From Chrysomallon squamiferum (taxonomy: Eukaryota; Animalia; Mollusca): a stretch of DNA of 64,000 nt. The notes beneath the pieces were generated by a model, which did no database searches, had not been told where the DNA came from, and saw nothing but the letters and a program-made list of their open reading frames with translations. Below, piece by piece: positions 926 to 58,606 of this stretch. The stretch is from positions 17,112,001 through 17,176,000 of the forward strand of contig CM022678.1 in NCBI GenBank assembly GCA_012295275.1. Reading direction: 5' to 3'. The position numbers and the translations under genes were made by a program. Within the stretch, counting starts at the first letter, position 1. Each line of letters starts with the position of its first letter.

Positions 926-1027
926 TTAAGAGTTTCAAATGTAAAGACAACTCGTGGTTCTGTTCTCCTGACAACTGCGGGCCGGAAGACGAAATGGACT
1001 GTATGAAGACTTGCAGAGTTTGTACAG
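926..1027 (+). CDS. ShK-like six-Cys exon, copy A
   Basis: Phase 1-1 exon encoding [33 protein letters not shown], with CxD start and CxKTCxxC end. Confidence 0.8.
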
Positions 1028-1758
1028 GTAAAGTTATCAGTGTTCCAGCATAACATAGTCATGAGGAGAAGGATAGATACACAGACTAGTTCATGTGTTA
1101 AGTAACGATATGCAGAATATTTGGTATGTTAATGTATCATATACATGTCAGATAGGACATAGACTAGCTAGAGACGGATATATTAGGAAGGATATGTATG
1201 CAGAATACAAGCATACTAGATACACTATTCAGAATTCCATAACAGTAAACAGATTTCAGCAGAGATACAGAGGATACACAACAACACACATAGGAAAGTT
1301 ATATATTAGGCAGGTCGTATACACAGGTTACCAGCTATGTTAAGATAGGCTACACAGACATGGTACTTTGTATACAGTATGAAACATATATTAGGTGGAA
1401 TAGCTATATTGAATATAATGATTGGGCAGGTTATTTTTATTTTTAACACGCGGTTTCATGAATACAAAAGCGAGCGTACACATACAAGAAGGACAACCAC
1501 ATATAACACTGTCACAAAATCATAAACATTTTTCATTTATTTTAATAAATATAACGATTGTTCTTGTTCCATACATACATTCACAGGCACACTATTTTAC
1601 TTTCAGTAAGTTGATATAACTAATTTCATTTACACGTTCTCAGAAACCTCGCATCTACTCTGTCTGTTTCTCTCTTAATTTCTGTAAATGTGATAAGCTT
1701 CCACACAAAACAAACCCTCTAACTTTCAGTAGATTATTCAGAGTAATTATACTTTTAG

Positions 1759-2935
1759 ATGAGGGATGTCCTGAAGGTTATTACCATGGTGATGGCGACA
1801 CGTGTATTTCCTGTTCTGTCGAAATCACAAAACATTCACCAAATTACAAAGAAAAATGTAATACACTAATTTGTCCCAGTAACAAAACGCATGGTTATTA
1901 CTGTGATGAGAACTGTAGTGACAGTTGCTTGGATAGAAGATGTTACCGCTGGACGGGTGATTGTGAACGTTGTCCTTCTGGATTATCTGGACCACGTTGT
2001 CAGCAGCACTGTAATAACACCGACGACAAAGGTGACTGCATCGGTGACTGTTTTTCTGGGTTTTTTGGTCGAAAGTGCGACAAAGACTGTCCAAAGCAAT
2101 GTAAACACAAAGTCTGCACGAAAACGTCGGGAAACTGCATCGGTGACTGTCTTCCTGGTTCTTACAGTCCACAGTGCGAAGAAAAGTGTCCAGACAGTTG
2201 TAAAGACAAAGTCTGCAACAAAAACACACGAGAGTGTTTACAATGCTCTCAAGGATTTTGGGGTCAAACTTGTGAGCTTCCTAGTTCAGTTAACTGTTTA
2301 AACAATTCCTGTAATAAAAACGGACAGTGCACTGAAGGCTGCAAAGTTGGATTTTTCGGAATGAACTGCTCAGAGAAATGCAGCGCGAACTGTCTACATC
2401 AGGAATGTAATAGGGAAAACGGATATTGTACGGATGGCTGCGTTTCTGGTAACTATTACGGATACGGTTGCAAAGTCTGTCCTCATCGTTGTCTGGATTC
2501 TAAGTGTGATCACAAAACCGGGAAATGTAAGAACGGATGCAATGGAACTGATATTTATGAGGCCTTTTGCAACTATTCTTGCGGCTCGGAATGTCGTGTT
2601 CGGTGTGAAAATATCTCCGATTACGTTGTATGCAGGGCGGTTTGTGTCAGCGGAAGAAAGGGAGAACACTGCAGCGATTTTTGCCCTAGGAATTGTAAAG
2701 GACCATGTCATCAGCTTTCAGGACGATGTCTTCATGGCTGTGTTTCAGGTTACCATGGTATCTACTGCAACAATTCATGCCCCGCTAACTGTCTGGGAAG
2801 TGCATGCCATCAAAACAACAAAACGTGTGTAGACGGATGTGTAACCTCGTTCTATGGACCGACGTGCTCAAATCGACAACTGCCCTGTCTGTGATGCTAA
2901 TGGGATCTGTATTTTGTATCATAGTCACGACGAAT
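1759..2935 (+). CDS. EGF-like (MEGF/SCARF-type) Cys-repeat ectodomain exon, copy A
   Basis: Open from the TTTTAG acceptor (DEGCPEGYY...) through ORF 1929-2894; repeated CxxGx(F/Y)GxxCxxxC units; a frameshift gives TGA at 2892-2894. Confidence 0.9.
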
Positions 2936-55100: not shown

Positions 55101-58100
55101 GTCGTGCCGCTTCTACAGTCCGAGCAAGATGAAAGTGTTGATATTAAACATTTTCACACATATGTGTACAACATGAGTCTTATGAAAGGTTTCCATGTTG
55201 AATTTCAGGTAATGAAATGCTTATATTTTCCTTTTTTTTTCCTTGTTAAATGTTTATTGTGTTTGCTATATATAATTGTTATTATTATTATTATTATTAT
55301 TATTATTATTATTATTATTATTATTATTATTATTATTATTATTTTATTTATTTATTTATTTATTTATTTATTTTTATTTATTTAATTTATTTATTTAGTT
55401 ACCTTTATTTTTATTATAATGTTTATGTTATTTATATTATTATTATTATTATTATTATTATTATTATTATTATTATTGTTGTTATTATTATTAATACTCC
55501 TGTTCTTGTAATTTATTGATTGATTACTGATTGTAATTATTTGGTAATATTTTTCCTTAAAACTAATGAATTATGTTGTTAATTAATTGATATGTTTACT
55601 TATTGTCGTTTTAGAATTTATGTTATACATAGTTTGTCAATCGAGGTACAGGATTCAAATTTTATATATTCATGCATAATCACATACACAGAAACCTCAT
55701 GCGTACATACATTACAAATAAAACATTAATTACGGATCCTTTGTCAGTTTTTACAGAAAATAAATTTATATTCTACCAACGTAGCAGACAAGTTAGAAAA
55801 TGTTTCTAAAAATAGATACAGGGATATAAAGCCATGTAAGTAGAAATGTGAACTATTATGTCGTTATTTTCCCTGTCTCGCTTGTTCTTGTCTTTTGTTT
55901 ATTGTATTCCTCTTTACTTTTTATTCTTGTTGTTGTTGTTATATATGTTTATTTCCCCTGTCAGTGTTGTTCTTCTTATTAGTTTCTTGTTGTTTCTGCT
56001 TTGATTGTTGTTGTTGTTTTCAGCTATCAGAAAGAGTGATATCATAATTTTCTATACAAAATTATATAAAACATTACATAAAATAACCTGCAGACTATCT
56101 GTATTAATCATGCTATAAATAGAGATACTACTACTGCTGCTACTACTGCTTCTACTACTACTTGTTGTTGTTGTTGTTGTTGTTGTTGTTCTTCTTCTTC
56201 TTCTTCTTATTATTATTATTATTATTATTATTATTATTATTATTATTATTATCATCATCATCATCATCATCATCATTAATACCAAACAACTGAAATATAT
56301 ATAGTTTAAAATAGTTTTATTAAAGTTTATTCAAATTATATCCTAAACATTTACCCATTATTTATTTATTTTTCACTGTTTTTTTTAATAATTATTTGAA
56401 AAGATGATTATAACAGAGTGACGCTTGAGTTAATTCATGGAATCCCATTCACAGATTATATCAACGCAAGTTTTATTGATGTAAGCTTATTTATTTATCT
56501 ATTCATTTATTTAATAATTTATTATTTATTTATTAAATATATTAATTTGCATAATGTATGCACACAAACATACACACGCACACACACATATGCAAACAGA
56601 TATATATATATATATACGCACACCTACACACATACTTACTTCCATTTATTTGTATTTATTTACTTACATATCTATATATTTTTTAAATGTATTAATTATA
56701 TTAATTTCAATTCAGGGCTATCACAAATCAAAGTGGTATATTGCAGCACAAGGTCCTACAGAAAAGACAGCAGCTGATTTCTGGAGAATGGTTTGGGAGG
56801 TCAACTCTACTCATATCGTAATGCTTACGAATTTAGTTGAAAACAACCAGGTTTGCCCTCTCTCTCTATCTTTATATATATTTGGAATTTCATTCTTTAT
56901 GTTTAAATCTCTGATTTTCTCCCTGTCAGTTTCTCCCTATCTGTCTGCCTCTCTGTTTCTGTAGATAGGTACATAGAGACAGACAGATAAGGTTTTAAAC
57001 GTAAATAAATAAATTAAAAGCATGTATTATTTATATCTTTGTAAATGTTTTATAGAAAAAGAGCGAAAGAATTCTGTTTAGTAGTATCTCTTACAGTCAA
57101 AATGTTCACTTTACTGGCCTAACACGGAAACTAAGAGCAAGACCTACGGAGGTATTATGGTCGAACTGAAACAAGTTGAAGTTCATCCAACATACAGTTC
57201 TAGGATTTTTAATCTTTCCAAGGTTTTTTGATATTTAATTTTTAACGCATCAGAAAGTTTATTTGGTTCTAAAATTCTTGTTTTTTTCTGGTACTGTAAA
57301 TACATACTTCTATACATATGTACATACATAAATAGATGTATACATAATACGCAACACACATATATATGCATATATATATATATATATATATATATATATA
57401 TACATTTATTTATTTATTTACTTATTAAATAATTAATTATTATATCATTAATATATCCTATTTATTTGTTTACTTTTGATTACTTATTTACTTATTTAAT
57501 TAATAATTAATTAATTATTTTCTTACTTTGTTCTCTCTTCCTTCCTTTGTTTATTTATTTGTTTGTTTGTTTGTTTGTTTGTCTGTTTAATTCATTATTA
57601 AGAAAAGTAATCCGGAATTGACAAGAACTGTGACACAACTACACTACATGGACTGGATGGACAAACAAGTGCCAAACAGTATACATGCATTGCTTCATTT
57701 TATCCTGTATGTGAGGGGCTCAGAGATAGGGGGGATAATCATCCGTCAATAGTTCACTGCAGGTATAGTAGTTTACTGTTTCAACTGATTTTCTTTTATT
57801 TAGAATAAAGGTACAAAAAATGAATATAAAAAAACCCAACAAAATTAAGAAATAAAGAAAGAATAAAGAATGAAAAAAGGAAATAAAGAAATCGTTTTCT
57901 GAATAAATGAATAAATAAAATGATTAATGAATGACAGCATACTAAATACAAATTGACATTTTCGTTTTCTATTCAACTAGACAAATCCGTGTTAATTTTC
58001 TAATTAATACAAACATGCAAATGATATATCAGTTGCTATTAGGAGATCTACATTAGAATAACCTTTTTCCCCTTGATATTCTTCTTCGTTTTTCATTTTT

Positions 58101-58606
58101 CTCAGTTGAAATAGAGTTCATTTGTAAAATTATTAAAATTGTTTTCCTTCCAGTGATGGTGTTGGAAGAACAGGTACTTTCATAGCTATAGATTATCTTC
58201 TTGACCAGGCACTGACCGAAGGAAAACTTAACGTACTTGGTTGTGTGTCACGTTTAAGAAAACAACGAACTCAAATGGTGCAAACTTTTGTGAGTATTTT
58301 GGATTATCTACTCATTAGAAATAATTTTTATATGCAGTTATCATTATGTTATTATTATCGTTGTGATTGTTGTTGTTGTTATTATTATTATTATTATTAT
58401 TATTATTATTATTATTATTATTATTATTATTATTATTATTATTATTATTATTACTACTATTTTCTTTATGTGTTTGATTGGGGTTTGTTTGTTCTTATAC
58501 TTTGTTTCTTTACAAAATCTATTATTTTTATTTTTCGTTTCAGATGCAGTACAATTTTATTCATCAACTTCTGTTAGATTGGTTGTTATTATTCAAGATC
58601 ATTTAA
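49042..58606 (+). CDS. Copy C: ShK-like/EGF-repeat receptor-type PTP-like protein (~881 aa if one 1-nt deletion is corrected)
   Basis: Exons 49042-49105, 51400-51501, 52120-53211, 53719-53818, 54250-54347, 54805-55208, 55748-55835, 56404-56480, 56716-56850, 57097-57222, 57603-57762, 58154-58289, 58544-58606. There is a -1 in a G run at ~57715. Confidence 0.85.
49650..49925 (+). promoter_or_regulatory. Exon-less copy of the promoter block (cassette 8)
   Basis: CTAAATATAG, GGAAACTGAAACTA 49740, GACGGAAGT; similarity stops before the ATG. A shorter relic lies at ~61690-61815. Confidence 0.55.
51400..51501 (+). CDS. ShK-like six-Cys exon, copy C
   Basis: [33 protein letters not shown], phase 1-1. 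Confidence 0.8.
52120..53211 (+). CDS. EGF-like Cys-repeat ectodomain exon, copy C
   Basis: Lies within ORF 51999-53282; donor GAAT|GTAAGT; 1092 nt, one repeat fewer than A/B. Confidence 0.92.
53719..53818 (+). CDS. Transmembrane exon, copy C
   Basis: [33 protein letters not shown]. Confidence 0.85.

Follow-up and report, generated by a model that had tools for sequence, protein, structure and literature searches.

We found that a window of 64,000 nucleotides (nt) from the mollusc Chrysomallon squamiferum (GenBank assembly GCA_012295275.1, contig CM022678.1, positions 17,112,001 to 17,176,000 of the forward strand) contains one gene in three near-complete plus-strand copies, A, B and C, as established by self-alignment and exon mapping. 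The window is AT-rich (GC content 30%) and contains many microsatellites. We cautiously favour a reading of the copies as tandem, spliced genes for single-pass receptors of the MEGF/RPTP kind (RPTP, receptor protein tyrosine phosphatase), with an outermost cap that is likely to have the ShK fold and with one protein tyrosine phosphatase (PTP) domain, probably weak or inactive. Such a receptor would likely signal through tyrosines of its tail and by binding phosphotyrosine proteins, not by dephosphorylating them.

Organization of the tandem copies

The exon order is common to the copies. A signal-peptide exon of 43 nt (in B and C; that of copy A falls beyond the window) is followed by a six-Cys exon of 102 nt, referred to as the cap, and by a single Cys-rich exon of 1.1–1.2 kb that encodes repeats of the epidermal growth factor (EGF) type, referred to as the stalk or EGF exon. 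On its 3′ side lie a 100-nt transmembrane (TM) exon, two juxtamembrane exons (JM1 and JM2), seven PTP exons (P1 to P7) and the stop codon. AG and GT were found at 37 of 37 listed internal coding acceptors and donors, counted from the six-Cys exon to P7 in copy A and from the signal-peptide exon to P7 in B and C. The parts of the three copies are as follows.

926–8687 (+): copy A, 5′ end beyond the window edge
926–1027 (+): six-Cys ShK-like exon of copy A, 102 nt, phase 1 at either end (exon mapping, splice sites)
1759–2935 (+): copy A MEGF/SCARF-type repeat exon; an 8-nt deletion near 2876 shifts the frame
3347–3446 (+): copy A TM exon (exon mapping)
3892–3989 and 4524–4935 (+): copy A juxtamembrane exons, the second with a 4-nt deletion near 4916
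5216–5303, 5861–5937, 6279–6413, 6787–6912, 7309–7469, 8228–8363 and 8625–8687 (+): copy A PTP domain, seven in-frame exons
30260–40959 (+): copy B, near-complete, about 911 residues if translated
30260–30302 (+): copy B putative signal-peptide exon, 43 nt, phase 1, with a short hydrophobic core
32541–32642 (+): six-Cys ShK-like exon of copy B; joined to 33488 in RNA contigs of paralogues
33488–34669 (+): copy B MEGF/SCARF-type repeat exon, 393 residues, 68 Cys
35166–35265 (+): copy B TM exon (hydropathy)
35901–36007 and 36465–36880 (+): copy B juxtamembrane exons with acidic Tyr motifs
37421–40959 (+): copy B PTP exons; 1-nt loss near 39700, 1-nt gain near 40582
49063–58606 (+): copy C, near-complete, stop codon ending at 58606
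49063–49105 (+): signal-peptide exon of copy C, with GTG in place of the ATG of its paralogues
51400–51501 (+): copy C six-Cys ShK-like exon (exon mapping)
52120–53211 (+): copy C MEGF repeat exon, one 33-residue repeat shorter than A and B
53719–58606 (+): TM exon, juxtamembrane exons and PTP exons P1–P7 of copy C; a G run near 57716 is 1 nt short

Cap exon, EGF-repeat stalk and intracellular part

The 102-nt exon that the initial annotation had described for each copy is present in all three, flanked by AG and GT and in phase 1 on both sides. Its product has the spacing C-x6-C-x4-C-x7-C-x3-C-x2-C and ends in CMKTCxVC in each complete copy. In a six-frame search of the window, a loose ShK-type cysteine spacing gave three matches, all of them at these exons, against none in each of 30 block shuffles. 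The placement of this exon between signal peptide and EGF exon holds for copies B and C; for copy A the window ends too early to include the signal exon, and in copy C that exon starts with GTG.

In RNA contigs from paralogues, the cap is spliced to the EGF exon as the GT..AG sites predict, with 32642 joined to 33488 and 845 nt skipped. The joint was observed in two of three RNA runs, with two contigs in X1 (109 letters on the shorter side) and two in X2 (26 letters); it was not seen in the contigs of RNA run X3 or of the DNA-like run X5. A loose end at 32590 in X1 and X2, translated by hand, belongs to a further expressed cap variant with Cys2 in register and most of the surrounding residues changed.

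To describe selection, the ratio of nonsynonymous to synonymous substitution rates (dN/dS) was calculated for the three copy pairs, which are not independent of each other. For the cap (33 codons) the ratio is 0.14–0.20 (one-sided Fisher p = 0.0005–0.009), the lowest value among the gene parts in all three pairs, and the cap exon is under purifying selection. The EGF exon has a ratio of 0.46–0.60 and the PTP exons one of 0.25–0.58, both likewise under purifying selection. Two values above 1 (TM plus JM1 between A and C; JM2 between B and C) rest on 2 and 3 synonymous changes, respectively. The ectodomains had initially been called variable. This holds only in part: no pairwise dN/dS exceeds 1 in the cap or EGF exon, and no diversifying selection was detected in either by this measure.

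Two side observations concern the same region. The copy A cap exon has a tandem duplicate 960 bp away (1–67 versus 961–1027), with 5 differences in 67 nt, one of which alters the Lys of KTC; its 3′ part, cut by the window edge and followed by a GT donor, occupies positions 1–67 (+). Some genes of the family may thus have a double cap or alternative ones. A single X1 contig of low depth leads from 34498 inside the EGF exon back to 32536, just 5′ of the six-Cys exon. This contig may be an assembly chimera, a circular RNA or a rearranged paralogue.

The stalk exon of copy B encodes 68 cysteines in 393 residues, from which we estimate about 11 six-Cys units. Pfam yielded only sub-threshold matches to EGF_TEN. 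A protein search with the stalk gave 8 matches among 226 candidates, the top five being MEGF proteins of clam and oyster with 29–37% identity, two of them with a PTP domain (PF00102) and one with a kinase. Its neighbours in the Atlas are mostly molluscan laminin-EGF/PEAR1-like clusters. The AlphaFold model of the stalk has a predicted local distance difference test score (pLDDT) of 73; the fold closest to it is that of human SCARF1 (Foldseek E 4e-7; Z 6.3, root-mean-square deviation 10.3 over 132 residues). The bivalve MEGF matches, the SCARF1 match and the PEAR1-like neighbours bear out the EGF-repeat ectodomain of the initial annotation, and "EGF repeats" is a correct label if it is taken to mean repeats of the MEGF/SCARF/PEAR1 type. 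A clam protein (P0005) was also observed that has the same kind of MEGF stalk and a tyrosine-kinase domain in place of the PTP domain.

Copy B shows one hydropathy peak above 1.8, corresponding to a single TM segment. The tail contains the tyrosine motifs YDEN, YEYI and YxxL in an acidic context. In copy A the seven PTP exons are in frame and encode 261 residues with the motifs KNRY, WMD, HCSDGVGR and QMVQT; over 252 residues they are 38% identical to the first PTP domain (D1) of an oyster record (P0004). Pfam PF00102 matches the PTP exons. A stop codon directly follows the single PTP domain in A, B and C, and tblastn detected no trace of a second one (D2) in the window. The gene structure agrees with the TM segment and one PTP domain of the initial annotation. 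No trace of a galactose-binding domain (GBD) was found: the best tblastn hit of the GBD region of P0004 in the window has an E-value of 0.099 and lies outside the genes, and nothing separates the cap from the EGF exon in the spliced RNA. RNA joints among the PTP exons were observed for P4–P5 (X1, X4), P5–P6 (X2, X4) and P6–P7 (X1, X2, X4). Word searches with the juxtamembrane exon and with the WMD exon gave no match.

Fold of the cap, activity of the PTP domain and intactness of the copies

We consider it probable that the cap has the ShK fold. The initial annotation had recognized an ShKT signature in it. The six-Cys spacing with the terminal C-x3-C-x2-C fits such a signature, but Pfam does not match it and the predicted fold is of low confidence. 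In the Atlas, the third match of the cap is a cluster with ShK on 11% of its members (score 0.92, 186 shared features), and the ten best family-bearing matches share one family or clan, as they do for a third of shuffled proteins. Sequence searches of the PDB with the cap returned only OspTx2b and Aurelin at E ≤ 10, both weakly (E 0.29–9.8). Molluscan ShKT domains can be missed by HMMER through altered loop lengths, and some stand beside EGF domains, according to the available part of PMC6409789. A profile built from the three caps had no match at E ≤ 0.001 among 1.84 billion representatives, a profile of 33 positions being weak.

Several results weigh against the ShK assignment. Pfam ShK (PF01549) matched none of the four cap exons alone, nor the three complete ones with their flanks. 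The AlphaFold model of the cap, calculated with three sequences, has a pLDDT of 56 and contains one helix; two fold searches with it found no match, which is uninformative at this model confidence. The copy A cap gave no PDB match. As controls, two Cys-rich stretches of the EGF exon were searched in the PDB and matched unrelated proteins with E-values of 0.037 and 0.099, lower than those of the cap; ShK peptides were not among their matches. Finally, the loose cap spacing also occurs within the MEGF arrays of two of eight fetched MEGF-type proteins. The cap could therefore be a shortened, separately exonised EGF/MEGF-type module or a novel six-Cys module, and the genes MEGF-RPTPs that lost GBD and D2. 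The missing Pfam and fold matches and the occurrence of CxxTCxxC in MEGF arrays are in line with this. We nevertheless regard it as rather doubtful: the G-x-x-G motif of the stalk repeats is absent from the cap exon, the cap profile scores on none of the eight MEGF-type proteins, and the Atlas and PDB leads point to ShK-family peptides only.

A Lys–Tyr dyad is a feature of ShK-type potassium-channel toxins, which are small secreted peptides (PMC6409789, in part). The cap has no tyrosine in any of the three copies and a net acidic charge, and channel block is unlikely for this reason. A function of the cap as a potassium-channel toxin was rejected on account of the absent dyad, the acidic charge and its splicing to the EGF exon, which would tether it to the membrane. 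In metagenome scans, which were otherwise empty, one locus (L001) was rejected as a chance match lying off-frame of an apparent bacterial transporter gene.

The PTP domain combines features of active and inactive relatives. All three copies keep KNRY, the catalytic Cys and Arg of the C-x5-R loop, the loop Asp that serves as the general acid, and the Q-loop. In all three, WPD is changed to WMD and HCSAG to HCSDG. An Asp at +2 relative to the catalytic Cys marks the inactive domains of ICA512, phogrin and CD45-D2, and the activity of ICA512 was restored once this Asp and the missing loop Asp had both been reverted (PMC2174349, in part). Judged from these motifs, the PTP domain is likely weak or dead. 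The loss of the loop Asp, one of the two changes reverted in ICA512, is absent here, so that activity may persist, and this counts against our reading. Conventional ligand-regulated RPTPs with an unusual ectodomain and an active PTP domain would explain the retained catalytic residues, the PTP dN/dS and a P-loop exon that in PDB sequence searches is closest to D1 of RPTP-alpha/epsilon. We consider them unlikely in view of the WPD-loop proline, replaced in three of three copies, and of the +2 Asp, reported solely in inactive domains in the available part of PMC2174349.

A phogrin-like phosphoinositide phosphatase, through which ligand binding would change membrane lipids, e.g. during phagocytosis, appears quite improbable to us. 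It would account for the combination of W-x-D and C-S-D, which is that of phogrin (PMC2174349, in part), a protein termed a phospholipid phosphatase (PMC9900141, in part). The best single-domain PDB score of the WMD exon also belongs to phogrin (33.5 bits versus 22.8 for the next), which reads WYD at this position. The phosphotyrosine pocket with its KNRY motif is intact, however, and neither IA-2 nor phogrin is among the best 60 PDB matches shown for the P-loop exon. Since this neighbouring exon is closest to RPTP-alpha/epsilon D1, the likeness to phogrin is probably convergent. A weak or dead domain that binds phosphotyrosine, as we prefer, has a parallel in the dead PTPRU domain, which binds substrates of active relatives (PMC7320164, in part).

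None of the three copies is intact as assembled (five frameshifts in total); the RNA contigs come from paralogues and not from the window copies (X1 record 1 has 41 differences in 244 nt), and the linkage of ectodomain and PTP domain in one transcript follows from the gene structure and not from RNA. These points, too, count against our reading. Copy A contains an 8-nt and a 4-nt deletion outside homopolymers and is probably a pseudogene. In copy B, a G run is one base short (~39700) and a T run one base too long (~40582); copy C, besides starting with GTG, lacks one base of a G run (~57716). Single-base slips in homopolymers are typical of long-read assembly error. At 39700 the open frame is present in one RNA contig each of X2 and X4 (an X1 contig ends 4 letters beyond the site and shows none), and at 40582 in two X1 contigs and one X2 contig. 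The DNA-like run X5 has open-frame forms in 1371 of 6864 of the depth at 39700 and in 1430 of 2714 at 40582. The frameshifts of copy B are likely assembly errors, though only part of the X5 depth shows the open-frame forms. That every copy in the window is a pseudogene, with the working members in other parts of the array, is a possibility of some weight, although not the one we expect. It would be in keeping with the five frameshifts, the nature of the deletions in A, the GTG of C, the share of copy B EGF words found in any RNA run (at most 0.16) and the roughly half of the X5 depth at 40582 that lacks the deletion shown by the RNA contigs. On the other side, each of the three shifts in B and C is one base in a homopolymer, and B and C are free of stops for 792 and 755 codons, respectively, up to exon P4.

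Array turnover, proposed mechanism and known systems

Identities between the copies form a mosaic. In the TM and JM1 exons, A is closest to C (91–96% versus 68–85%). In most of the PTP exons A and B are the closest pair (up to 100%), and in JM2 it is B and C. The synonymous rate dS declines from 0.5–1.0 in the cap to 0.07–0.17 in the PTP exons. Both patterns fit recombination and gene conversion in a tandem array. On a stretch of 2.3 kb, 2,143 X5 contigs align at ≥82% identity, and a single variant is shared by up to 41 of them; this depth points to many family copies and is not itself a copy number. Relics, mosaic identities and the change in repeat number agree with the birth-and-death family proposed initially, but the immune role that went with it rests on analogy. 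The further features of the window are the following.

16538–25790 (+): orphan 5′ blocks (upstream region and signal-peptide exon) ending at about 16640, 20034, 23036, 24784 (GC donor) and 25790, without downstream coding exons
45414–45878 (+): orphan PTP exons P6–P7, 3′ of an ankyrin-gene fragment
47390–47878 (−): inverted, decayed relic of PTP exons P2–P3
61280–61322 (+): signal-peptide exon of a further copy or relic, with no six-Cys exon after it within the window

In all, the upstream region with its signal exon was observed as an orphan at least six times (16538–25790, 49925 and 61280–61322), and several of these orphans have an intact ATG and GT donor. By analogy with clustered receptor loci, copy B may use them as alternative first exons. 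In the region 44144–45878 (+), the orphan P6–P7 exons are preceded by the 5′ part of an ankyrin-repeat gene. It comprises an exon at 44144–44260 with a GA donor and one at 44640–44735 that matches Pfam Ank (E 9e-7). An X1 RNA contig with a loose end at 40495 joins the end of the latter exon to a P6 exon with 1 difference from that of copy B. This contig may stem from another copy of the chimera. The join would represent exon shuffling caught as a chimeric transcript, and in the window it would be out of frame. A decayed tandem repeat with a period of ~39–78 nt is located at 46335–47245, beside the inverted PTP relic. Two broken open reading frames, 13770–15220 (−) and 63515–63769 (−), presumably resemble an hAT-type transposase and an integrase core; Pfam gave no significant match for either.

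We propose the following mechanism. The cap and the first repeats would bind an extracellular ligand, and the ~11 repeats would hold them off the membrane. Clustering of the receptors could then let kinases phosphorylate the acidic tail tyrosines in YDEN, YEYI and YxxL. Towards phosphotyrosine substrates, the PTP domain would act as a binding or shielding partner or as a slow enzyme. Unequal crossing-over and gene conversion are the likely means by which the array itself turns over. By analogy with snail relatives, the recognition of non-self or of parasites can be suggested as a role.

We advance a wider interpretation only tentatively. The genes might encode a large set of lineage-specific, diversified recognition receptors in which an exon-shuffled ShK module replaced a lectin domain as the ligand-binding tip, while the PTP domain independently became a phogrin-like pseudo- or lipid phosphatase. 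If so, this would be the first ShKT domain to act as the sensor of a signalling receptor, and the paralogues would vary the first cap loops on a fixed Cys scaffold. An ShK-fold cap would in any case add a non-toxin receptor role to this fold. In molluscs, few gene families have a genetic link to parasite resistance, and MEGF/RPTP clusters are one of them; the available part of PMC12297450 gives no ligand or mechanism for these candidate resistance receptors. In the variant of the window the outermost domain appears to have been swapped via a symmetrical phase-1 exon and a catalytic module dropped or disabled, which suggests that different tips can be exchanged on the stalk as a platform and that the receptors may do without catalysis.

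The closest known systems are molluscan. EGF-repeat/TM/PTP receptors are an expanded family in molluscs, already proposed as immune receptors, and SudRes1 of Biomphalaria sudanica, a locus of schistosome resistance, holds a cluster of GBD-MEGF-TM-tandem-PTP receptors that are resistance candidates and whose haplotypes differ by EGF loss (PMC12297450, in part). The oyster record P0004 has the same build of GBD, MEGF, TM and tandem PTP. SudRes1, P0004 and a clam protein (P0002) have in common with the window genes a signal peptide, a MEGF stalk, one TM segment and an intracellular PTP domain; SudRes1-type genes also share the clustered paralogues with differing EGF number. In place of the N-terminal GBD of SudRes1 and P0004 the window genes have the 34-residue six-Cys cap, and in place of the tandem PTP a single domain. 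D1 of P0004 has the canonical WPD and HCSAG, as opposed to WMD and HCSDG. Because two defining features, GBD and tandem PTP, fail, we treat the window genes as a variant of the molluscan MEGF-RPTP family. The term ShK is absent from the main text and 11 supplements of PMC12297450, and IPR003582 from those supplements (one more was unreadable). The initial annotation had called the architecture undescribed, comparing it with classical Ig/FN3/MAM RPTPs only, and had overlooked this family. The full ShK-EGF-TM-PTP combination was indeed not found in the literature searched or in the protein searches, within their limited reach, but the EGF/TM/PTP backbone is known from molluscs (PMC12297450, in part; P0002; P0004).

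Among receptors with one PTP domain, IA-2/ICA512 (PTPRN) and phogrin (PTPRN2) share the Asp at +2 of the catalytic Cys (PMC2174349, in part), and phogrin has W-x-D in place of WPD, comparable to WMD here. Their ectodomain is unrelated to that of the window genes, and the rest of the window PTP domain is nearer to RPTP-alpha/epsilon D1. ShKT proteins such as OspTx2b, aurelin, CAP-ShK and M12-ShK have, like the cap, six Cys in about 30 residues ending in C-x3-C-x2-C; the partners named in the available part of PMC6409789 are proteases, oxidoreductases and secreted peptides, not PTP receptors. The cap differs from them by its short loops, its composition (acidic, with neither Tyr nor the dyad) and its place on a membrane receptor. 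Judging from the sequence records, the MEGF stalk appears to pair with a kinase, a phosphatase or, in P0001, no enzyme in molluscs. Receptors of the SCARF1/PEAR1/MEGF10 type resemble the window genes in the EGF-repeat fold and in a tail with tyrosine motifs; they are not known to have a PTP domain. What appears new in the window genes is the cap in place of the GBD and the single PTP domain with WMD and HCSDG, on a backbone that was already known.

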